Part shown: piece after piece, positions 3,476 to 31,007 of the stretch | How positions within the stretch are numbered: position 1 is the first letter of the stretch | Layout: every line of letters starts with the position of its first letter | Source: a virus | IMG/VR virus record: IMGVR_UViG_3300036790_000060 | Location: 8,836 to 72,835 of that record | Length of the DNA stretch: 64,000 nt | Direction: 5' to 3' (one strand) | The notes under the pieces: generated by a model | The model's database searches: none | What the model was told of the DNA's origin: nothing | Seen by the model: only the letters and a program-made list of their open reading frames with translations | Program-made: the position numbers and the translations under genes

Positions 3476-3877
3476 TCAGTCCTCCTTGGCTGCCTTCATA
3501 CATGCCTGGTAGCCATCTACCAGGATCATCATCAGTAGGTCGTCGGGATCGTCGGACGGCGGCGTGATCTGGATGATGACCATCCGCGCGTTGCTCCTCG
3601 GATCGATCTCCGCCTTGAACCCCTTCGTCGCGTTGAACATATCAACGATGTCCTGCGGGGTATGGATCGGGGTGCCGAAGTCGTCCTGCACGTCGGCGAC
3701 CGCCGTGCAGAGGTTCGGCGGTTTCCCGACGATCCGCCAGTCCGGTTCCGACGCGTGGGCGCACGAGTAGGCGGCGAGGCACAGGAGCGCGACGATCCCC
3801 CAGCCGACGACGAACCGCACGGGGCGGAACATCAGCAGCACGATCAGGAATAGCGCGGGAAGCGTGAGTATGATCAT
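3476..3877 (-). CDS. putative membrane/exported protein
   Basis: Two N-terminal hydrophobic segments ending AHA-S. Confidence 0.65.
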   Translation of the reverse strand: MIILTLPALFLIVLLMFRPVRFVVGWGIVALLCLAAYSCAHASEPDWRIVGKPPNLCTAVADVQDDFGTPIHTPQDIVDMFNATKGFKAEIDPRSNARMVIIQITPPSDDPDDLLMMILVDGYQACMKAAKED

Positions 3878-4083
3878 GGGAACGACTCCTCCTTAGTTTC
3901 GTATCGGCGCATCGTAACGCGGCACGTGAAGCCGTAGTCGCATTCGATCTCGGCTTCCACGTTGTTGAACCGCTTCGCGTCGGCGTGGTTCCGCAGGACG
4001 TGCGACGATACCAGGTGCGCGACTTCGTCCTTATCGAGGGTGAAGACCTTCGTCTCCGTCAGCGTGACATCGACCTTGATCAT
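3874..4083 (-). CDS. hypothetical protein
   Basis: Coupled ORF with GGAGG RBS. Confidence 0.6.
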   Translation of the reverse strand: MIKVDVTLTETKVFTLDKDEVAHLVSSHVLRNHADAKRFNNVEAEIECDYGFTCRVTMRRYETKEESFP

Positions 4084-4280
4084 GACGGCCTCCTAGCGAC
4101 GTGGCGTAGCTTCGCCGGTTCGCCCATCTCGTATTCGACCTGCTGCTGGGACACGAGCGCGTCGTCGAGGTTATCGAAGGCGAACAGCGGCGCCCAGTAG
4201 CCGTCCTGGTTGACATGGACTATCATACCGTCGCGGTAAGCCCGATACCCCGGACGCCATACGTAGAGGTGATACTCCAT
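4080..4280 (-). CDS. hypothetical protein
   Basis: Start moved to MEYHLYVW after GGAGG. Confidence 0.55.
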   Translation of the reverse strand: MEYHLYVWRPGYRAYRDGMIVHVNQDGYWAPLFAFDNLDDALVSQQQVEYEMGEPAKLRHVARRPS

Positions 4281-4501
4281 CACAGCCTCCCGCAGAATAA
4301 GTTCGGTCCGATCCCCCACGCGGGAAGGAATAGGTCGAACAGGGTGTAGATCGCCGGGACGGTCATCGCCACCATGACGATCCCCGATGCGGCGAGCGCT
4401 ACCGAAGCGTTCGTCTGATACATCTTCGGGAATTCGATCGAACACGATTTGATCATCTTGTACAAGACGATCACTTGCGCCAGCATGAGCCACGTGATCA
4501 T
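4280..4501 (-). CDS. small membrane protein
   Basis: Two hydrophobic segments; coupled to neighbours. Confidence 0.55.
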   Translation of the reverse strand: MITWLMLAQVIVLYKMIKSCSIEFPKMYQTNASVALAASGIVMVAMTVPAIYTLFDLFLPAWGIGPNLFCGRL

Positions 4502-8817: not shown

Positions 8818-8997
8818 TCATCCATCGGTTTCGTCGGGATACACGACCGTAGGGACAGGGCGATCGAGTTCGCGGATAATCGCGCGGCGCATGATTTCCG
8901 AAGGGCGCCGGTCTTCGACCACGGCACGGTCTTTCAGCCTGGCTACGGTCCCTGGTGGGAGACGAACCATGATCATATCCGTAAGCACGCGAGCCAT
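8818..8997 (-). CDS. ribbon-helix-helix (CopG/Arc-like) regulator, 59 aa, not in ORF track
   Basis: MARVLTDMIMVRLPPGTVARLKDRAVVEDRRPSEIMRRAIIREL; AAGGAG RBS. Confidence 0.7.
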   Translation of the reverse strand: MARVLTDMIMVRLPPGTVARLKDRAVVEDRRPSEIMRRAIIRELDRPVPTVVYPDETDG

Positions 8998-12933: not shown

Positions 12934-13124
12934 TCATCAACAAGCTCAGGACGAATAAGGCGATCTGCGACGCGCTCGGTATCGATCCATCGAAGGTCAG
13001 TAAAGTCACTATCACGCTAGGCAGCGACGCGCCGATGATCGAAGTCCTATGTTACCTGGACGTCGAAAAAACCGGCAGGCTGGTCGAAGTTCTCTCTAAC
13101 TGCGAGTTTAGCTGGAAGTCATGA
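12930..13124 (+). CDS. hypothetical protein
   Basis: Coupled by overlaps to terL and portal. Confidence 0.6.
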   Translation: MIINKLRTNKAICDALGIDPSKVSKVTITLGSDAPMIEVLCYLDVEKTGRLVEVLSNCEFSWKS

Positions 13125-14647
13125 GCGGTTTCCAAGGAACGAACACGGCCGAAGGCGGCGAAGGCAATACCTTCGTCGGCCTGTCGTCGGGCGCCGGATC
13201 ACAGCTGACCAGGCTGATGCTGTCTGACGACATCGTTCCGGGCGATACGCCGTCCTACCAAACGTGCAAGATCACCTACACCTACCACCCGCTAGGCGGG
13301 AAGATGGTCGACACGCCGATCAAGGTGATGCAGTCCCAGGAACGCGAGATCACGGTTTCGGGCGGTCCTGAGACGAAGCTAATCCCGGAGTTCAAGCGTG
13401 TATGGAAGTCGCTTGCCAGTGTAGGCGCCGACTCGATCATCCAGAACGTTATCCGCACCGCGCGTATCTACGGCATCGGTTCCCTGGCCTGCGGCACGCG
13501 CGGCATCGGCCAGAACGCGCCGCTCGTCTTCGAAAACATTACCGAAGAGAACGTGTACTTCAACACGCTTGACCCGTTGAACACGGCCGGATCGCTAGTC
13601 CTTGACCAGGACCCTTCGAGCCCCGACTTCCAGAACCCGACGTCGATCACGTCAGGCGGGAAGAACTGGCATGCGTCGCGCACCGTCGTGGTCATGAACG
13701 AAAAGCCGATCTACATCGAATTCACCAGTTCGGCGTTCGGCTTCGTCGGCCGGTCGGTTTACCAGCGCGCCCTGTTCCCGATGAAGACGTTCCTGCAATC
13801 CATGATCACCGACGACATGGTGACCAAGAAGTGCGGGCTGCTGGTCATCAACGCTACCGCGCCGGGTCCGGTCACGAACAACCGCATCCTGAACTTCTTC
13901 GGTCTGAAGCGCTCATATCTCAAGGGCGGCGTGACCGGGAACGTCATCACGATCGGCGAAAAGGAACAAATCAGTTCCCTCAATTTCCAGAACCTGGAAG
14001 GTCCGGCGAAGTTCGCCCGCGACAACGCGCTGAAGAACATCGCCATGGCCGCCGGGATGCCAGCCAAGCTCCTCGAACAGGAGGAAATGGTCGGCGGCAT
14101 GGCCGAAGGAACCGAGGACGCGAAGGCGATCGCGCAGTACATCAACGCGATGCGCGAAGAGTCGCAGCCGATCTATCGGTTTATGGATAAGGTCGTGATG
14201 CGCCTGGCCTGGTCCCCGACGTTCTACAAGACGATCCAGAAGGAATTCCCCGAGCTGTACGGCGGCGTCGATTACAAGACCGCGTTCATCGAATGGGCGA
14301 ATGCGTTCGAAGCCACGTGGCCGAACCTGCTGGAAGAGCCCGATAGCGAAAAGATCAAGGTCGAGGAAACGCGGTTCAAGTCAGTCGTCGCCCTCCTGGA
14401 AACGCTGGTCCCGTCGCTCGATCCGGAGAACAAAGCCGCCGTGATCGCCTGGGCCGTGGACGAGATCAATACGCGCCGCCAGCTGTTCTCCGCGAACCTG
14501 GACATCGACGCGAAGAAGCTGGCGAAGTTCGGGATCGAACAGCAGAAGCAGCAGCAACAGATGGCCCAGCAGGGCGCCGCTGGCGGGGCGGGCGAAGGCG
14601 GGGCGAAGGAACCTGCGCCGCCGAAGCCGTTTAGTTCGACGTCATGA
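13121..14647 (+). CDS. portal protein (DUF1073-like)
   Basis: 508 aa following TerL; ARIYG, GFVGRSVYQR, IAMAAGMPA..L, EGTED. Confidence 0.85.
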   Translation: MSGFQGTNTAEGGEGNTFVGLSSGAGSQLTRLMLSDDIVPGDTPSYQTCKITYTYHPLGGKMVDTPIKVMQSQEREITVSGGPETKLIPEFKRVWKSLASVGADSIIQNVIRTARIYGIGSLACGTRGIGQNAPLVFENITEENVYFNTLDPLNTAGSLVLDQDPSSPDFQNPTSITSGGKNWHASRTVVVMNEKPIYIEFTSSAFGFVGRSVYQRALFPMKTFLQSMITDDMVTKKCGLLVINATAPGPVTNNRILNFFGLKRSYLKGGVTGNVITIGEKEQISSLNFQNLEGPAKFARDNALKNIAMAAGMPAKLLEQEEMVGGMAEGTEDAKAIAQYINAMREESQPIYRFMDKVVMRLAWSPTFYKTIQKEFPELYGGVDYKTAFIEWANAFEATWPNLLEEPDSEKIKVEETRFKSVVALLETLVPSLDPENKAAVIAWAVDEINTRRQLFSANLDIDAKKLAKFGIEQQKQQQQMAQQGAAGGAGEGGAKEPAPPKPFSSTS

Positions 14648-16275
14648 CGACGCTACGCGATATCGCCCGGACGCTTGGCGTCATCAAGCCATCTCGCGAA
14701 GAGAAGCTGGCGGCAATCCTTGATGACCTGTCGTCGGTCGAAGTGCGGATGGACCTCGAATGGAACGAGTCCGATCATCCGCGCGCCGCTGACGGCAAGT
14801 TCGGATCGGGTGGTGGCGGGTCCGTCGCGCACGGCGCGAAGTCGTATATCAAGAGCCTGGCCGGCAAGAAGGGCAGCGGCGCAGGGATGATCAAACACAT
14901 GCTGCAGGCCGGCACCTATAGCAAGGCGGATATTATCGCGGCGACGAAGGAAGTAGGCTTCAACCTCGGCGGGAACCCGTCATACGCCATTGAAGCGTAT
15001 CACAAGCAGATGATGAACCCGCCCCCGATCCCGGCGAAGTCTGGGCCGAAGGAAGTGAACACGCCAACGGGCACCGATCCTGATGGTTCGTTCGCCGCGC
15101 ACGGCAAGAAGATACTGGCCGAGATCGAAGCGGCGAAGGCAGCGAAGGCGGCGGTTAGTGGGAAGTCGGCGCAGCAGCAAAAAGCCGTCGCGTCGCTGAC
15201 TTCGATCGCCGAACTGCCGGATGAGAAAAAGACGGAAAAGTTCAAGGACGCCGCATACAAGTATCTCCCGTCGAACATCTTTTCAGCGATGAAACCGACG
15301 CTCGACCACTTCGAAAACCTGACGGCGGAAAACAAGCCGAAGGTCGAAAGCAAGCTGATGGAGGTGCTTACCGCGTTCGCCGAGAATGAGGGTAGCGATA
15401 CGGATACGAATGACATCTACACGGCGCTGATGAAGATTGATCCGATCGCCGGTTCCGGGATGTCGGTCAACGCGGTGAACACAATGCTCGTCGGCGTGAA
15501 AGCCGACTACGCCTCGAAGGCGAACGTGACCGGTTACGCGCCGACGTCCGAAGCCGAGAAGAAGGTCTACAGCAAGCTATCGAAGGTCGCGCATTACGCC
15601 ACCGATAGCGGTGCCGTCGCGGAAGACCACGAAGGCAAGGACATCAAAGCGCGGCTGAAGACCAGCACGAAGGCGATCCCCGGTGACTATTACGCCAAGG
15701 TGTCGTCGGCCTACAACGGGAAGAAGAACGTTGGCGATACCCCGCACGTCGGGTCGGCGATGCAGGACTACGGTAACGAGGTCTGGAACACGTTTGACGA
15801 AGAGCAGCGGGGCTCGCTTGATTTGTACAAAGGGTCAGGGTACATGTCGATCAATCAGGCGCTATTAAGTGAGAACTTCGATGAGTATGCCAGCAGCGGT
15901 GTAAAGTCGCGTATCAAGAACATCGACGCGGCGATGGCAAAGTCAGTCGTTCCGGCCGATACCCCTGTGTTTCGTGGGATGACTGCCACCCTGAAGGACC
16001 TGACCGGCTTCGATGATCCCGACGAAGCCGTGGGCCGCGCGTTCGAACACAAGAACTACGCCTCGGTGTCGCGGAATATCGAAGTGTCGAAGAACTTCGG
16101 CTCGACGACGATGCTGCGGTTCACAATCCCCGCTGGGGCAAACGGCATCGTGCTGGGAAGTCAGTCGGCGGGCGAAAAGGAGATCGTCCTACCACGGCGC
16201 GGTGTGTTCCGGGTGGACAAGGTGACTGGCAATATGGTAGACGTCACCTATTTGGGAGTCCGTGAGGATGACTGA
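14644..16275 (+). CDS. head-associated mono-ADP-ribosyltransferase (VIP2/Alt-like, R-S-E class)
   Basis: Y..SGY..IN..L, VFRGM, YASVS, GEKEIVLPR; N-terminal WNESDHPRAADGKFGSGGG motif. Confidence 0.85.
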   Translation: MTTLRDIARTLGVIKPSREEKLAAILDDLSSVEVRMDLEWNESDHPRAADGKFGSGGGGSVAHGAKSYIKSLAGKKGSGAGMIKHMLQAGTYSKADIIAATKEVGFNLGGNPSYAIEAYHKQMMNPPPIPAKSGPKEVNTPTGTDPDGSFAAHGKKILAEIEAAKAAKAAVSGKSAQQQKAVASLTSIAELPDEKKTEKFKDAAYKYLPSNIFSAMKPTLDHFENLTAENKPKVESKLMEVLTAFAENEGSDTDTNDIYTALMKIDPIAGSGMSVNAVNTMLVGVKADYASKANVTGYAPTSEAEKKVYSKLSKVAHYATDSGAVAEDHEGKDIKARLKTSTKAIPGDYYAKVSSAYNGKKNVGDTPHVGSAMQDYGNEVWNTFDEEQRGSLDLYKGSGYMSINQALLSENFDEYASSGVKSRIKNIDAAMAKSVVPADTPVFRGMTATLKDLTGFDDPDEAVGRAFEHKNYASVSRNIEVSKNFGSTTMLRFTIPAGANGIVLGSQSAGEKEIVLPRRGVFRVDKVTGNMVDVTYLGVREDD

Positions 16276-16423
16276 CGACGCGGCTGACCGCCGTTTTATC
16301 ATCGAGAAGGGCTCGGTCGTCCCGATCGGGAAGATCAAGCAGACGATTGACCACACGTCCGAAGCCGACAAGAAGGCGAAGGCCGAGGCCGAACGCGCCC
16401 AGCAGATCGATGTCGACGAGTAG
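16268..16423 (+). CDS. small hypothetical protein (51 aa, not in ORF track)
   Basis: MTDDAADRRFIIEKGSVVPIGKIKQ...DVDE; overlaps the ART stop and the MuF start. Confidence 0.5.
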   Translation: MTDDAADRRFIIEKGSVVPIGKIKQTIDHTSEADKKAKAEAERAQQIDVDE

Positions 16424-17261
16424 CCCCCAGACCTTTCAGGAACTGCTGACGGCCGCGATCAACGAATTCTCCGAACGCGGATATGATAATCCGGAGCGCG
16501 TCCAGCACTGGTTGATGATCCTCCGGAACGCGGCGGAACGCGACCTAGGACCGGAGTGGCAGACCAACGCTGACGTCCGCGAACAGATGACGCGGCTGTT
16601 CGAAAAAGCGACTTCGGTCAACGACGTCAAACGCTACGTCCCGGATATCCAGCCGTGGACGATATCGATCGTGAAGCCGAAGGTCAGGCCAGAACTGGAC
16701 CGGCGCGTCATCGCCTCGGTTAACCTAATCAAGCTGAACCGCAAGACGGCCGTGGAGAATACGCTTAGGCGCGCTGAAGGGTGGATGACGTCCGTCCCGC
16801 CCGGTGGCGTCGAAGATATCGATCGGCGTGAGGTCAAGACGGGGATCACTAAGTCCCTCGCGCAGCATAAATACGAAGTCCGCCGGGTCACGATCGACCA
16901 GTCACATAAGCTCCTGTCGAACGTCCGCGACGTTATCGCGATGGACGCGGGGGCGATCGCCGTCATCTGGCATAGCCACTGGCGCGACGCATCGTATAAC
17001 TACAGGAAGGACCACAAGGGTCGGGACGAACGTGTCTACCTGATCCGCGACTCCTGGGCCCACAAGCAGGGGCTCGTCAAGCCGGGTCCAGCTGGCTACT
17101 TCGACCAGATCACGAAGCCCGGCGAAGAGGTCTACTGCCGCTGCTGGGTGGTTTACATCACGTCGCCGCGAAAGCTACCCGACGAAATGCTGACTTCGAA
17201 TGGCCAGGCTTGGATCGAACGCGGCCGGATCGCCGCACAGAACAGGATAGCCGGATCATGA
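16410..17261 (+). CDS. minor head/head morphogenesis protein (MuF, SPP1 gp7-like)
   Basis: IDQSHKL, WHSHW..YNYRKDH, PGEEVYCRC. Confidence 0.85.
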   Translation: MSTSSPQTFQELLTAAINEFSERGYDNPERVQHWLMILRNAAERDLGPEWQTNADVREQMTRLFEKATSVNDVKRYVPDIQPWTISIVKPKVRPELDRRVIASVNLIKLNRKTAVENTLRRAEGWMTSVPPGGVEDIDRREVKTGITKSLAQHKYEVRRVTIDQSHKLLSNVRDVIAMDAGAIAVIWHSHWRDASYNYRKDHKGRDERVYLIRDSWAHKQGLVKPGPAGYFDQITKPGEEVYCRCWVVYITSPRKLPDEMLTSNGQAWIERGRIAAQNRIAGS

Positions 17262-17488: not shown

Positions 17489-17661
17489 GCTACGTCGATG
17501 AAGTGATGGCGCGGTTCACCGCTTACCGCAAGCGTGAAACCGAAAAGTTGGAAGAGCAGGACGAGGCGCTGCGCCAAGTGATCGAAAGGAACGCGCGGTA
17601 TGCCGATGAGGTCCAGTCACAAATGGCGGAGGTCTTCGCCAAACTTCAATGGAAGAAGTGA
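17485..17661 (+). CDS. small coiled-coil protein (58 aa, not in ORF track)
   Basis: [18 protein letters not shown]...LQWKK; GGAGG RBS. Confidence 0.55.
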
Positions 17662-17662
17662 C

Positions 17663-17869
17663 ATGCCGCTAGCATCCGGGTCGTCCAAGGAGGCGATCGG
17701 TCAGAACATCGCGACCGAACGCCACGCCGGCAAGCCGGAGAAGCAGGCGATCGCGATCGCGTATTCCGAAGCTGGGAAGTCGCGGAAGGACACGATGGGC
17801 CAGGTCCTGAAGGACTGCATGGCGCTCAGCGATCGGTTCGACAAGTTCATGAAGAGCAATAGCCGATGA
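17663..17869 (+). CDS. small head-module protein (MPL..GSSK..I..NI..E..AGKP..QA.AIA type)
   Basis: Motif recognised from phage head modules. Confidence 0.7.
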
Positions 17870-18114
17870 CGCCGTTCACGTTCCGGCTGCGCGTCCCGAT
17901 GGACGTCAAGCCGCCGAGCTTCATGCCGCACGCGGTCATGGTCTGCCGTATCCGGGTCGGCATTCGCACGCACTTCATGGAAGTCACGTTCGAAAAGCTC
18001 GGCGAAGACGAACTGATCGCGACGTCGGTTATGGAACTGCCCGACTTCGACGCGATGAAAGACTTCGAGTTCGGCTGGATGGCTGAGGGCGTGTTCCTCC
18101 TGCTGGCCGTATAG
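17866..18114 (+). CDS. hypothetical protein
   Basis: ATGA coupled; its stop directly abuts the tRNA-like gene. Confidence 0.55.
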
Positions 18115-18186
18115 GCGCCGCTTTCTGGCGAGGGTCCGGGCTTTCAATCCCAGGACAGCCCGGTTCGATCCCGGCGCGGCGCACCA
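18115..18186 (+). tRNA. atypical tRNA: short D-arm, 8-nt anticodon loop CTTTCAAT (Glu-TTC-like or four-base TTCA)
   Basis: Perfect acceptor stem GCGCCGC/GCGGCGC plus A-CCA; T-arm CCGG-TTCGATC-CCGG; anticodon stem TCCGGG/CCC(A)GGA. Confidence 0.75.
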
Positions 18187-18201
18187 ATTCGTGAGGACGA
18201 T

Positions 18202-18301
18202 ATGACCAAACCCGATACGTGAATACGCGGCTAGAGGCCCACCCCGTCTCCCCAGGCTGACCCGTTCAACCTCAGGAGATGATCATGCACGTATTCCTTA
18301 A
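18202..18301 (+). other. putative recoded leader peptide MTKPDT-[UGAA]-YAARGPP...
   Basis: GAGGA RBS, ATG at 18202, TGA at 18220; the +1 frame is open to TAA 18299-18301 and encodes ARGPP. Confidence 0.45.
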
Positions 18302-18641
18302 AGTCAAGATTTGTTCCCTCGCCGCCGAGGCTTCCATCATCCGTCGCGAAGAGCGCCGGTGGAAACCGCGCTGGCGGTCCCACCAGGACCAGATGTTTTT
18401 CCGGCTGAAAGGACATCGCACCTGCGACGTCCGATCGGAGCAGCGGTCGGCCCTGCTGGCTTACGGCTTCCTTCGCGGGACGCCGTATCTGGTGATCGAG
18501 TCGAAGTGCTATGAAGAGCCGAACTGGGGGCGGGTCGCGAAGATCGTCCGGAAGTTCGGACCGCTGATATCTGAGACCGACGCCATGAAGGCGGTGTCGG
18601 AATGGTCCAAAGTGCCGCTGCCGGTCGCGCTGGCGGCTTAA
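18279..18641 (+). CDS. basic hypothetical phage protein
   Basis: LKVKICSLAAEASIIRREE...HRT..VR.E.R.ALLAYGFLRG.PY; AGGAG RBS. Confidence 0.8.
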   Translation: MIMHVFLKVKICSLAAEASIIRREERRWKPRWRSHQDQMFFRLKGHRTCDVRSEQRSALLAYGFLRGTPYLVIESKCYEEPNWGRVAKIVRKFGPLISETDAMKAVSEWSKVPLPVALAA

Positions 18642-18664
18642 CCCTGATCGCCGGAGAGGCGTTG

Positions 18665-19588
18665 ATGACGAAGAACGCTGCCGGTGTGATGATCATGTCG
18701 AAAGGGAGGGCGCTGCTGCTGCAGCGCTCCTCGACGTCCAGCCATCCGGGCGAATGGTGCTTTCCCGGCGGCGGGATGGAAGACGGCGAAACGCCTGACG
18801 AAGCCGCGTTCCGCGAACTGTTCGAAGAGATCGGCGACCAGGACGTGGGCGAACTCAAGTTCTGGATCAGGCGGATCAAGGACGACGTTGACTTCACGAC
18901 GTTCATCGCCAAGTCGCCGACGTGCTTCGAACCGCGACTGAACGACGAACACACGGCGTTCGCCTGGATCGATCCGGTGCACCCCGCCGTGAACATGCAC
19001 CCCGGCGTCAAGATCGCGCTCGACAAGCTATCGATGGACGAGCTCGATATCGCCGACGCGATGGCGGACGAAGAGCTTTCCAGCCCGCAGGTGTACGGGA
19101 ACCTCTGGATGTTCGCGATCCGGATCACCGGGACCGGCTTCGCCTACCGGGCAGGGCGGAAGGAATACGCCTGGCGGGATACGTCGATCTATCTGACCGA
19201 TCGGTTCCTGCGCCGTTGCAACGGCCTCCCGGTGACGATCGACCACCCGGACAAGTCTTCGCTCGACACGAAGGAATACGAGGATAGGGCGGTCGGTTCC
19301 GTCTTCGTCCCCTACTTCAAGGGCGAAGAGGTCTGGGCGATCGTCAAGATACATAACGCTGCGGCCGCCGCGCTAATGCAAAGCGAGCAGCTTTCCACGT
19401 CTCCGGGCGTGGTCTTCCGAGACGCGACCAGCACGAACGCGACGTTCCAGCTAGGTGGTGGCAAGGCGCTACTGATCGAGGGCAAGCCCGCTCTCCTCGA
19501 TCATATCGCAATTTGTGAGCAGGGCGTATGGGACAAAGGTGGAGAGCCCGCCGGAGTCGACATCAACGGAGTAATCGATAATGGCTAA
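18665..19588 (+). CDS. NUDIX hydrolase fused to DUF2213 head-maturation (prohead protease-like) domain
   Basis: Nudix box PGGGMEDGETPDEAAFRELFEEIG; GLPVTIDHP, LSTSPGV, LDHIAICEQGVWD. Confidence 0.85.
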   Translation: MTKNAAGVMIMSKGRALLLQRSSTSSHPGEWCFPGGGMEDGETPDEAAFRELFEEIGDQDVGELKFWIRRIKDDVDFTTFIAKSPTCFEPRLNDEHTAFAWIDPVHPAVNMHPGVKIALDKLSMDELDIADAMADEELSSPQVYGNLWMFAIRITGTGFAYRAGRKEYAWRDTSIYLTDRFLRRCNGLPVTIDHPDKSSLDTKEYEDRAVGSVFVPYFKGEEVWAIVKIHNAAAAALMQSEQLSTSPGVVFRDATSTNATFQLGGGKALLIEGKPALLDHIAICEQGVWDKGGEPAGVDINGVIDNG

Positions 19589-20561
19589 GGAAGGTGAAGA
19601 CGACGGCCTCCTGGACAAAATCCACGACGCAGTGAAGTCCCTGCACGGCCGGATGGATGCGTTCGAGAAAGAGCGCAAGGACGAAGACGACCGGAAGGAC
19701 GCCGAGGAAAAGGTGCGTATGGACAAGGCGCGCCACGACTCCGCCCGGAAGGACAAGTTCGGCGCCCGGAAGGACGGCGAACGTCATGACGCTTGGAAGA
19801 AGCGCCACGACGAAGACGAGAAGGCCATGTGCGATGCCATGGGCGGCGACGATGCCGCGAAGGACTCCGCCCGGAAGGATCGTCACGACGCTGAAGAGGA
19901 AGAGAAGCGCAACGACGAGGACTTCGAAAAGTGGGCCAAGGAAGAGGAAAAGGAGCCCGAGCACAAGAAGGACTCCGAGATGTCCTCCAAGCAGGCCGAG
20001 TCGCCTGAGATTAAGGACAGCGCTGAAACCGAAAAGGAAAAGGAAGAAGCTGTGAAGGACAAGGCGCGGCACGACGCGGTCGTTGCCGAGAACGCGGACC
20101 TGAAAGCCAGGTTCGAAAAGATGGAAAGCATCATCGCGAACCTGACCCGTGAAACTCCGGCGTCCGAACGTTCGGCTCTGGCGAACGCGCAGGCTCGCGC
20201 CGACAGCGTGGCGGTGATGTTCGCCGATCGCGCCCCGCCCCCGATCGGCGGCGAGACTTCGCTGGACTACCGGAAGCGGATGCTCCGCCGGTTCCAGGCG
20301 CATTCCCCGCGCTTCAAGGAAACGCGGTTCGACAGCTACGACGAGGCATCGGTCAGCACGGTCGAGGACGTCATCTATCACGACGCGATCAACCGTGCGC
20401 GGGAACCCGGCGACACCCGTCCCGGTCAGCTGATGGCTTTCGAGGAGCGGGACCGCGCAGGCCGGACGATCACCAAGTACTCCGGTGACATCCTGGGCTT
20501 CATGGCACCGTTCATGACGGGCGCCACGACCGGCACGATCAACCGCAAACCGAACGGCTAA
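19581..20561 (+). CDS. capsid scaffold protein
   Basis: Highly charged with repeated RxD motifs; lies between the protease-like and capsid genes. Confidence 0.75.
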   Translation: MAKEGEDDGLLDKIHDAVKSLHGRMDAFEKERKDEDDRKDAEEKVRMDKARHDSARKDKFGARKDGERHDAWKKRHDEDEKAMCDAMGGDDAAKDSARKDRHDAEEEEKRNDEDFEKWAKEEEKEPEHKKDSEMSSKQAESPEIKDSAETEKEKEEAVKDKARHDAVVAENADLKARFEKMESIIANLTRETPASERSALANAQARADSVAVMFADRAPPPIGGETSLDYRKRMLRRFQAHSPRFKETRFDSYDEASVSTVEDVIYHDAINRAREPGDTRPGQLMAFEERDRAGRTITKYSGDILGFMAPFMTGATTGTINRKPNG

Positions 20562-30240: not shown

Positions 30241-30252
30241 AGGACTTCCAGG

Positions 30253-30876
30253 ATGCGACTCAATGAGCGACTTAACCTGGTGATACCAGTCTACGACGAT
30301 CACGACAAACTCGTCGGCCACGTCCATTCGACGCCGGTGTCTCTCGCGACGTTCGAAGTCAACCACGCGATCGTCGCCCGGACGTTCACCTCGCTGTTCT
30401 CTTCCGGCTACGGCGAAGTGGCCGGGCCGCGCGTCGCGGCGATGATCATGCGTAGCCTGGCGAAAAGGTATGGCGATGACGCCGAGGAATTCATCGGCGA
30501 AGTCGTCCGTCTTTCCCGCTACGTGCACGGCGCGGCGAAGGGATGGGAAACGCTCCCGCTAGAAGATGCGATCGCTGAAGGCGTTCTCACCGATGAGGAT
30601 GCTTCGGAGGTCATCAACGCAATCGTTTTTTTTACTGTCGCCTCGGCGATGCTTCCTCGGAAGACGGTGAATTCAACGATCGCGTCGGCTGCAAGAATAT
30701 GGAATGCGTCGACATCCTCATTAGAGTTTACGGCCTGGGTAACTTCCTTGCGGACGTCGACAAAAGCCGTAGCTTCGAAGAAGACGGTCGCACCGCCTAC
30801 CGAACACGCGGTGGAACCGGCGGGACTCCAGGTGATGAAAGATGGACTGACATCAACGTTGCAGGTGCCATCCTAG
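30253..30876 (+). CDS. tail assembly chaperone (G-type)
   Basis: Between tube and tape measure; contains a T8 slippery run. Confidence 0.75.
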   Translation: MRLNERLNLVIPVYDDHDKLVGHVHSTPVSLATFEVNHAIVARTFTSLFSSGYGEVAGPRVAAMIMRSLAKRYGDDAEEFIGEVVRLSRYVHGAAKGWETLPLEDAIAEGVLTDEDASEVINAIVFFTVASAMLPRKTVNSTIASAARIWNASTSSLEFTAWVTSLRTSTKAVASKKTVAPPTEHAVEPAGLQVMKDGLTSTLQVPS

Positions 30877-31007
30877 GGTGGGCGGCCGGGTCCGGCTTCC
30901 GTGAACTCGCCGAGGACGTCGGATTGATGTTCTCGACGGCCTCCGAATTCCGGTCCCGGCATATGACGAAGAGTCTGTTCGCTGCCTTAAAGGCGCTGAA
31001 AGGATAA
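30625..31007 (+). other. programmed -1 frameshift site and extension of the tail chaperone (GT-type)
   Basis: GTT TTT TTT ACT at 30625-30636; the -1 frame is open to TAA at 31007, 3 nt before the tape measure start. Confidence 0.75.

Follow-up and report, generated by a model that had tools for sequence, protein, structure and literature searches.

The DNA analysed here is a stretch of 64,000 nucleotides (nt) from a virus (positions 8,836 to 72,835 of IMG/VR record IMGVR_UViG_3300036790_000060), hereafter called the window. At 18115-18641 it probably carries a self-contained phage cassette made up of a dedicated transfer RNA (tRNA), a gated leader and a target gene, gene X. The best-supported model of this cassette is an arrest leader gated by a suppressor tRNA, the gate being read here as the four-base codon UGAA. 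Comparison of the window with related loci shows that the matched tRNA, stop codon, frame, predicted arrest motif and predicted hairpin are conserved as a set. The elements had been named in an earlier inspection of the letters (the sequence-only reading) as a tRNA-like RNA, a leader, its UGAA and a +1 frame encoding YAARGPP; each of them was found in the sequence where that reading had placed it.

The tRNA-like RNA (18115-18186, + strand) is compact, with an encoded CCA, a reduced D-arm and an anticodon loop of 8 nt; it was recognized from its sequence and with a covariance model, R1. The acceptor stem pairs GCGCCGC (18115-21) with GCGGCGC (18176-82) through 7/7 Watson-Crick pairs and is followed by the discriminator A at 18183 and CCA at 18184-86. 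The T-loop TTCGATC (18164-70) fits TTCRANY and is carried by a T-stem of 4 base pairs plus a C-C mismatch. The D-arm is reduced rather than full, because the acceptor stem is separated from the anticodon stem by just 14 nt. In the anticodon stem three pairs are certain (GGG at 18138-40 with CCC at 18149-51), and CC/GG can pair beyond a C-A mismatch or a bulged A. The loop, CTTTCAAT (CU-UUCA-AU; 18141-18148, + strand), departs from the canonical 7 nt and has the extra nucleotide of quadruplet tRNAs; TTCA at 18143-46 forms the four-base anticodon UUCA, which is complementary to the UGAA of the leader, as the sequence-only reading had said.

Whether this RNA is recognized as a tRNA depended on the model used. 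ARAGORN found 0 tRNA genes in the whole window, and the best match in the Rfam tRNA clan CL00001, to tRNA-Sec, reached 20.2 bits (E = 0.09) against a gathering score of 47. For R1, 19 related compact tRNA-likes were used and the window copy was left out. This model matched 18116-18186 at 56.4 bits (E = 8e-13), its sole match in 64 kb. The strand also folds more stably than its shuffles (z = -3.15). The window's tRNA-like element is more than a chance resemblance.

It could still be argued that the element is a decayed or ordinary copy of a tRNA-Glu (UUC), that the RGPP mini-open reading frame arose by chance and that X is an ordinary phage gene. The silence of ARAGORN and Rfam in the window fits this explanation, as does the reading of some relatives by ARAGORN as tRNA-Glu ttc. 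The loop CUUUCAA, which we take to resemble that of tRNA-Glu, was also counted in its favour. However, if the loop is read as 7 nt, its closing pair is mismatched, in the window and in its relatives alike; the covariance-model match has E = 8e-13; and 73 clusters at 70% identity show the same combination of loop, leader, frame, motif and hairpin. The comparative data already disfavour this explanation, which we regard as extremely unlikely.

The leader region begins 15 nt downstream of the CCA. Its Shine-Dalgarno sequence (SD), GAGGA (18193-18197, + strand), ends 4 nt upstream of the ATG at 18202. The leader open reading frame (ORF; 18202-18223, + strand; ATG ACC AAA CCC GAT ACG) encodes MTKPDT and is closed by UGA (18220-22), which forms the quadruplet UGAA with the A at 18223. 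In the +1 frame, the codons TAC GCG GCT AGA GGC CCA CCC (18224-18244, + strand) encode YAARGPP, RGPP lying at 18233-44. The Pro codon at 18239-41 is predicted to occupy the P-site, and that at 18242-44 the A-site, of a stalled ribosome. A TAG in frame 0 (18232-18234, + strand) is a backstop at which triplet read-through of the UGA would end, before RGPP. The +1 frame was said in the earlier inspection to run across the ribosome-binding site and start of X, and it is indeed open there, up to the TAA at 18299-18301. With 6 codons before the stop and 7 after it, the leader has no N-terminal signal or transmembrane segment of a Sec/YidC monitoring substrate, and X, which matched no family of Pfam, PHROG or NCBIfam, is not recognized as a downstream localisation gene.

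A hairpin (18245-18281, + strand) follows the motif, with its 5' arm at 18245-51 and its 3' arm at 18275-81; the 3' arm contains the SD of gene X, AGGAG (18274-78). It has a predicted energy of -15.8 kcal/mol (z = -2.41), and 2/200 shuffles folded equally well. Gene X itself (18285-18641, + strand) encodes 118 amino acids from the ATG at 18285, or 120 from the ATG at 18279; the product is all-helical and belongs to a large unannotated phage family. In L002, the closest relative of the window, the region around the stop is kept: the change in a Pro codon is synonymous and a 3-nt indel preserves the +1 frame. Another relative, L081, is identical in ...KPDT-TGAA-YAARGPP.

For the comparison, viral contigs were scanned with a profile of X. 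This gave 111 relatives, of which the best 80 were kept and, with the window, made 81 loci. Reading of the spacers upstream of X revealed that the same layout recurs: an SD is followed by a mini-ORF closed by the cognate stop, and after a few more codons come R-x-P-P and the gene. A strict scan, blind to the tRNA, was then defined as a start, at most 12 codons, a stop, at most 13 codons in any of the three frames and [RK]xPP. In the 250 nt upstream of X at the 81 loci, it gave 47 matches in 47 loci (2.32 per kb). The remaining fetched DNA (916,782 nt, both strands) gave 127 matches (0.139 per kb), which makes a 17-fold upstream enrichment. The sequence-only reading had proposed that DNA upstream of homologues of 18279-18641 would hold a tRNA, a leader with a stop followed by one extra base, an RGPP-like motif and co-varying codons and anticodons. 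What was found there is as predicted.

The frame of the motif followed a strict rule. All of the strict UGA leaders (35/35) had it in frame +1, with 0 in frame 0 and 0 in frame +2, and the background TGA matches were spread over the three frames (18, 18 and 20). The fourth base after UGA was A in 34/35 by the scan; the remaining locus (L068, TGA followed by a base other than A) is an artefact of the nearest-stop rule of the scan, its true stop being TGA-A on reading. Strict UAG leaders used frame 0 in 7 loci, frame +1 as UAG-A in 5 loci and frame +2 in 0. The gap between the stop and the Arg or Lys was 1-5 codons, and a frame-0 stop preceded the end of PP in 24/40 of the +1 leaders. The last leader residue was Thr in 17/47 (ACC 9, ACG 8), followed in frequency by the codons TTC (5) and AAC (5). 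The first codon after the stop or stop+A mostly began with T, giving UGAAU (Cys 17, Tyr 9, Phe 5, Ser 3 and, in part, Leu 6).

The 34 loci without a strict leader were classed by eye as relaxed (19), with a UAG within X (8), with a leader lacking PP (4) or without a gate (3). In the relaxed class, the motif is a variant (TGPP, GCPP, FHPP, RASP or YKPP), RGPP lies further downstream, or the leader is the end of an upstream ORF or has no canonical start; two successive TAGA precede RGPP in L011 and L012. The UAG within X lies in frame at codons 3-5 (L005, L017, L026, L035, L070-L072 and L074), and a CUA tRNA adjoins X in 7/8 of these loci, the fetched DNA of L070 ending just after the gene. By this classification, synthesis of X would be tied to suppression in 78/81 loci. 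At one of the loci without a gate (L057; 2950-3000, 3371-3449), X seemingly has no in-frame start, and reading ATG CAT TGC followed by TGAC as one step would restore the conserved N-terminus; the loop of an odd tRNA nearby is mismatched to TGAC.

Anticodons beside X in the relatives were then compared with the leaders. ARAGORN reported cta, tcta, ttca, tta, 'tc/ct', or Glu-ttc followed by A. A custom finder, set to accept only candidates with an acceptor stem, a T-arm and an anticodon loop of the stop type, detected many compact tRNA-likes of 64-69 nt missed by ARAGORN. Both a tRNA by this strict finder and a strict leader were present in 33 loci. There, a 7-nt loop with CUA accompanied a UAG leader in frame 0 (4/4), an 8-nt loop with UCUA a UAGA leader in frame +1 (4/4) and an 8-nt loop with UUCA a UGAA leader in frame +1 (25/25). 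The pairing first noticed in the window is seen at all 25 of the last group, which include L068 and L025; L025 has a second, CUA-like element further upstream. R1 added UUCA tRNAs in L002, L016, L023, L037, L040 and L051 and a UCUA tRNA in L048, and CUA tRNAs called by ARAGORN in L069 and L008 fit their UAG/frame-0 leaders, that of L008 lying on the opposite strand. Over the 47 strict-leader loci, with finder, R1 and ARAGORN taken together, 42 were concordant and 1 was discordant, and at 4 (L028, L054, L064 and L081) no tRNA was found in the fetched DNA. No 7-nt UCA tRNA (triplet opal) was seen among the X loci. On comparative grounds, this 42/47 concordance of tRNA and leader supports the proposal of the sequence-only reading that suppressor tRNA, gated stalling leader and effector form a recoding cassette.

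In an alignment of 32 tRNA-likes, the loop consensus was C/A-U-[UUCA or UCUA or UUUA]-A-U/C, and the RNAalifold consensus left 8 unpaired columns between three covarying stem pairs. RNAalifold was run on MAFFT alignments and recovered the inner anticodon stem and the T-arm only, because the 5' ends were misaligned. The bodies vary widely in acceptor stem and discriminator, so the amino acid carried is probably not conserved across the tRNA-likes compared. The GGG/CCC next to the loop is nearly invariant, including in the window (18138-40/18149-51), and in the compact class the stem above it is mostly unpaired and A-rich. Three G-C pairs at that position of the anticodon stem are a hallmark of the initiator tRNA.

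In prfB, a UGA lies in a short upstream frame, a +1 shift is needed to go on, and the output depends on the efficiency of termination. The cassette would share all three features, with an output tied to termination efficiency. The +1 shift at UGA-A could be independent of the phage tRNA: the leader would then sense release factor 2 (RF2) in the manner of prfB, a host tRNA would slip or bind out of frame, and the phage tRNA would be no more than genetically linked to it. Competition with RF2 at the UGA must in any case affect the output of the switch, no tRNA was detected in the DNA fetched for four of the strict-leader loci, and the frequent terminal Thr could mean that termination context matters. 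Nevertheless, the cassette has neither the slippery site CUU-UGA-C nor an SD 3 nt upstream (the window reads ACG-UGA-A), and its last sense codons (ACG, ACC, TTC, AAC and others) cannot re-pair in +1 as CUU does in prfB. A tRNA-independent shift also does not predict that the anticodon tracks the stop codon (UCUA with UAGA, UUCA with UGAA) and that loop size tracks the frame (7-nt CUA with frame 0), as at 42/47 loci. Unlike in prfB, a dedicated tRNA accompanies the shift, which would yield an arrest motif and not the protein proper. We consider a tRNA-independent shift very unlikely, and the suppressor-gated arrest leader is retained below.

The motifs of the 47 strict leaders were RGPP (22), RDPP (8), RAPP (7), RSPP (4), RPPP (2), KDPP (2), RYPP (1) and REPP (1). 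The second residue was accordingly G (22), D (10), A (7), S (4), P (2), Y (1) or E (1). In the available text of Fujiwara et al. (PMC12992588), RGPP and RAPP are the most robust arrest cores, refractory to elongation factor P, and RDPP and RSPP are partly permissive and under-represented in proteomes. The leader motifs follow the spectrum which that text gives for cores that are competent for arrest or under-represented in proteomes. PP lay at a median distance of 52 nt from the start codon, and the PP-to-start region folded with a mean z of -2.9. The SD region was paired in 41/46 loci, so that an SD-hiding hairpin recurs among the relatives.

Several observations weigh against a suppressor-gated arrest leader. 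The support for the cassette is comparative. The window's tRNA is atypical in its reduced D-arm, its three certain anticodon-stem pairs and its T-stem mismatch, and would have to be charged and used by the ribosome in spite of this body. At the predicted stall the nascent chain is just 13 residues long; the RAPP peptides that have been studied are longer, and their N-terminal parts aid stalling. No other UGAA site clearly needing the tRNA was found in this phage. At the discordant locus (L059; 2813-2960), a UUUA loop, one transition from UUCA, lies beside a UGAA leader. At L075 (2600-3120), the loop pairs best as 8 nt (UUUA), yet the TAA leader reaches ITGPP in frame 0. L024, L046 and L057 have no gate, and L021, L060, L063 and L076 have a leader with a cognate stop and a hairpin without PP. 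In many loci, CCUCC of the Pro-Pro codons is itself an anti-SD, so the PP signal could partly be a requirement at the RNA level. Finally, the concordance of tRNA and leader is partly due to descent, since the cassette is inherited as a unit.

The anti-SD observation may be taken further, to an element acting at the RNA level only: CCNCC would be the anti-SD of the hairpin, opened by any ribosome or by an RNA rearrangement, and R-x-P-P a by-product with no peptide arrest. The pairing of CCUCC with GGAGG of the SD in many loci and the four hairpins without PP fit such an element. It would not need an Arg or Lys three codons before the end of the motif or G, A, D or S as the second residue (41/47), and the motif always lies in the frame set by the type of tRNA, with 0 matches in frame +2 and 0 UGA matches in frame 0. 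Moreover, the Pro codons of the window, L002, L004, L013, L020 and L054 differ from CCUCC, and the arm of the hairpin begins downstream of them. In the leaders compared, the strict frame rule, the conserved Arg and the preference for G/A/D/S argue for translation of the motif, and we hold a purely RNA-level element to be very unlikely.

As for descent, the 81 X proteins fall into 73 clusters at 70% identity. The tree is poorly resolved (86 columns): on it the three classes need 17 changes, and if only well-supported branches are counted, at least 2 are required. All three classes occur together in one supported clade of 11 loci. Descent does not account for the persistence of the features in the face of diverging leader peptides, spacers and tRNA bodies.

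For the suppressor-gated leader of the window, we infer aminoacylation of the tRNA, four-base decoding, stalling and unmasking of the SD, in the following order. The compact tRNA (loop CU-UUCA-AU) would be excised from a late (head-module) transcript. Ribosomes would initiate on the 6-codon leader and arrive at UGA-A. By default, RF2 would terminate at the UGA, or triplet read-through would stop at the TAG four codons on, and the hairpin would hold the SD of X paired. An active phage tRNA would instead pair with the four bases UGAA, insert one residue and shift the frame by +1. The ribosome, stalled at RGPP, would cover the 5' arm of the hairpin, which begins right after the Pro codons; the SD would then be freed and X translated. 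The amount of X made would therefore follow how active the suppressor tRNA is in comparison with termination, and the phage's own suppressor or quadruplet tRNA would have to work for any X to be produced. Candidate inputs of the switch are tRNA charging, competition with RF2 or an attack on tRNAs.

On balance, we lean towards a broader interpretation. Phages would have evolved true four-base codons (UGAA, UAGA and perhaps UAAA) together with dedicated 8-nt-loop tRNAs as a private lock and key, and only cells with a working quadruplet tRNA would reach the RGPP stall and switch on X. X, with a family of thousands of members, would act as a novel translation factor controlling or exploiting stop-codon suppression, for instance by a feedback that targets the tRNA, release factors or ribosome rescue.

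Each part of the cassette resembles a system already described. The arrest peptides of the RAPP/RGPP type (ApdA, ApdP and ApcA, with the RAGP of SecM as paradigm) resemble the cassette: in the available texts, they end in an R-[G/A/D/S]-P-P core and precede a gene with its SD in a hairpin (PMC10951233, PMC12992588). They are described there as secretory or membrane 'monitoring substrates' on the 100-amino acid scale, released by the Sec/YidC machinery (PMC10951233, PMC12992588). The cassette differs in that its leaders are 2-12 codons long, with the motif placed behind a stop and often in another frame, and in that its input would be a suppressor tRNA and not protein export. The words 'phage' and 'stop codon' are absent from the available text of PMC12992588.

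The suppressors sufD, sufJ and sufA6/SufB2 and the engineered UAGA decoders share with the cassette tRNA an 8-nt loop and a four-base complement to the codon, and words of the UAGA and UGAA type have also been used in the laboratory (available text of PMC8481270, PMC9094753 and PMC4764823). As far as the available parts of these sources go, the known quadruplet or frameshift suppressors are laboratory mutants or designs, whereas the cassette tRNAs are wild, conserved and encoded in the genomes of many phage lineages. Unlike the laboratory suppressors, they also have a dedicated target in cis and often a compact body with a reduced D-arm.

In recoded phages (crAss-like, Lak, Agate and Jade), phage tRNAs likewise read stops, and suppression has been proposed, in the available text, as a timer of late genes (bioRxiv 10.1101/2021.08.26.457843). 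Such phages have many in-frame TAG or TGA read as triplets, according to the same text (bioRxiv 10.1101/2021.08.26.457843), whereas the genes of the window are open under the standard code. Its ORFs are long, with a coding-like GC content at third codon positions under table 11, and show no recoding with many in-frame TGA or TAG. The UGA class of the cassette is always four-base with a +1 reading, unlike the triplet reading of recoded phages. The terms 'anticodon loop' and 'frameshift' are absent from the available text of that study (bioRxiv 10.1101/2021.08.26.457843).

No description of a natural phage quadruplet tRNA or of a suppressor-gated arrest leader was found in the literature, supplements lying outside the search. 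Arrest peptides, laboratory frameshift suppressors and phage suppressor tRNAs each provide a known relative of one part; neither the combination nor a wild quadruplet tRNA with a target in cis was found described in the literature searched. To our knowledge, decoding by triplets counts as universal, and four-base decoding has been met in laboratory suppressor mutants and in synthetic biology. If the proposed reading is true, the cassette would show quadruplet codons at work in nature, conserved and regulated, with the tRNA directly beside its target in cis, and would supply natural quadruplet tRNA/codon pairs with context rules for genetic-code expansion. It would also add a class of input to arrest-peptide switches, suppressor tRNA activity instead of protein export, and give a direct experimental handle on phage control of stop-codon suppression during infection. 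The unannotated X family would be flagged as linked to translation termination or recoding.

The X family comprised 3,821 cluster representatives at E <= 0.001 in a profile search, and a word-indexed search with X gave 48 homologues among 56 candidates, 0 of them named and 0 with a Pfam domain. No family of Pfam, PHROG or NCBIfam matched X. The AlphaFold2 model of X (predicted local distance difference test score, pLDDT, 91.8) is all-helical, a long hairpin followed by three short helices. With this model, Foldseek found nothing in the PDB at E <= 0.001, the best match (E = 0.4) being a helical hairpin. The VIA wide structure search gave generic helical hairpins throughout (best Z 7.2), which is uninformative for a helical model, and the ESM Atlas search with X gave no usable match. 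Scoring of 8,000 candidates revealed no form of X that was longer or fused. A genome-contig scan with X alone matched 72 stretches, 0 of which were confirmed. In blastn of 17600-19600 against phage records, only two weak matches were obtained, both under the Nudix/scaffold gene.

The gene after X is not conserved: among 66 downstream ORFs, picked by a crude choice of the next ORF, no Pfam family was common to more than 2, and no PTH2-type family occurred downstream of X among the 25 listed of 30 families. The unit of the cassette was therefore taken as tRNA, leader and X. Many representatives of the X family have 25-50 extra N-terminal residues, the profile match beginning at residues 26-47; these extensions may be gene calls running from the leader or hairpin region into X. 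Our preferred guess, held with low confidence, is that X limits or copes with read-through, as a feedback governor or a rescue factor. The guess is made because synthesis of X appears tied to suppression in three different architectures. A single relative, L062, has a permuted transfer-messenger RNA gene called by ARAGORN about 500 nt downstream of X (3872-4331), an observation that touches ribosome rescue.

The virus record containing the window is 72.8 kb long and is rated complete. A soil metagenome was the only sequencing run found to contain the stretch and may be its source. From the Pfam and PHROG annotation of its neighbours, the cassette lies in the phage head module. The portal (13121-14647) and a head-morphogenesis protein (16347-17261) are encoded upstream; between these two genes is an ADP-ribosyltransferase-like ORF of 543 amino acids (14644-16275, + strand; Pfam PF03496, E = 3.7e-19; Alt-like PHROGs). 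The tRNA-like RNA begins right after the TAG of the upstream ORF 17866-18114. A promoter-like site was sought on the + strand near it and none was found; the RNA is probably excised from a long transcript. Downstream of gene X is a Nudix and DUF2213-like ORF (18665-19588, + strand), which covers positions 3-289 of the phrog_6216 profile.

Other sites of the window were considered as UGAA targets. The Nudix ORF and the next ORF (19581-20561, + strand), which covers positions 322-537 of phrog_6216, are not joined by UGAA: the stop is TAA-G, and the overlap, ATGGCTAA, leads to their being read as split. Thirteen genes end in TGA-A and three of them have long +1 extensions. Two of these extensions run into the frame of the next gene, which has its own start, and were rejected; phrog_6359 is complete without the extension. 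The homologous gene was looked for in five related records, all of them fragments, and was absent. The tail-chaperone region was also rejected, as it looks like an ordinary -1 G/T arrangement. This likely G/T pair (30253-31007, + strand) consists of an open frame at 30241-30876 and a second one, in the -1 frame, at 30597-31007, and is directly followed by a tape-measure-like gene of 642 amino acids. The sole Rfam match at the gathering score in the window was suhB/mmgR (RF00519; 5450-5526, - strand; 54.9 bits), which may be a phage-borne copy of an alphaproteobacterial small RNA and a hint at the host group.

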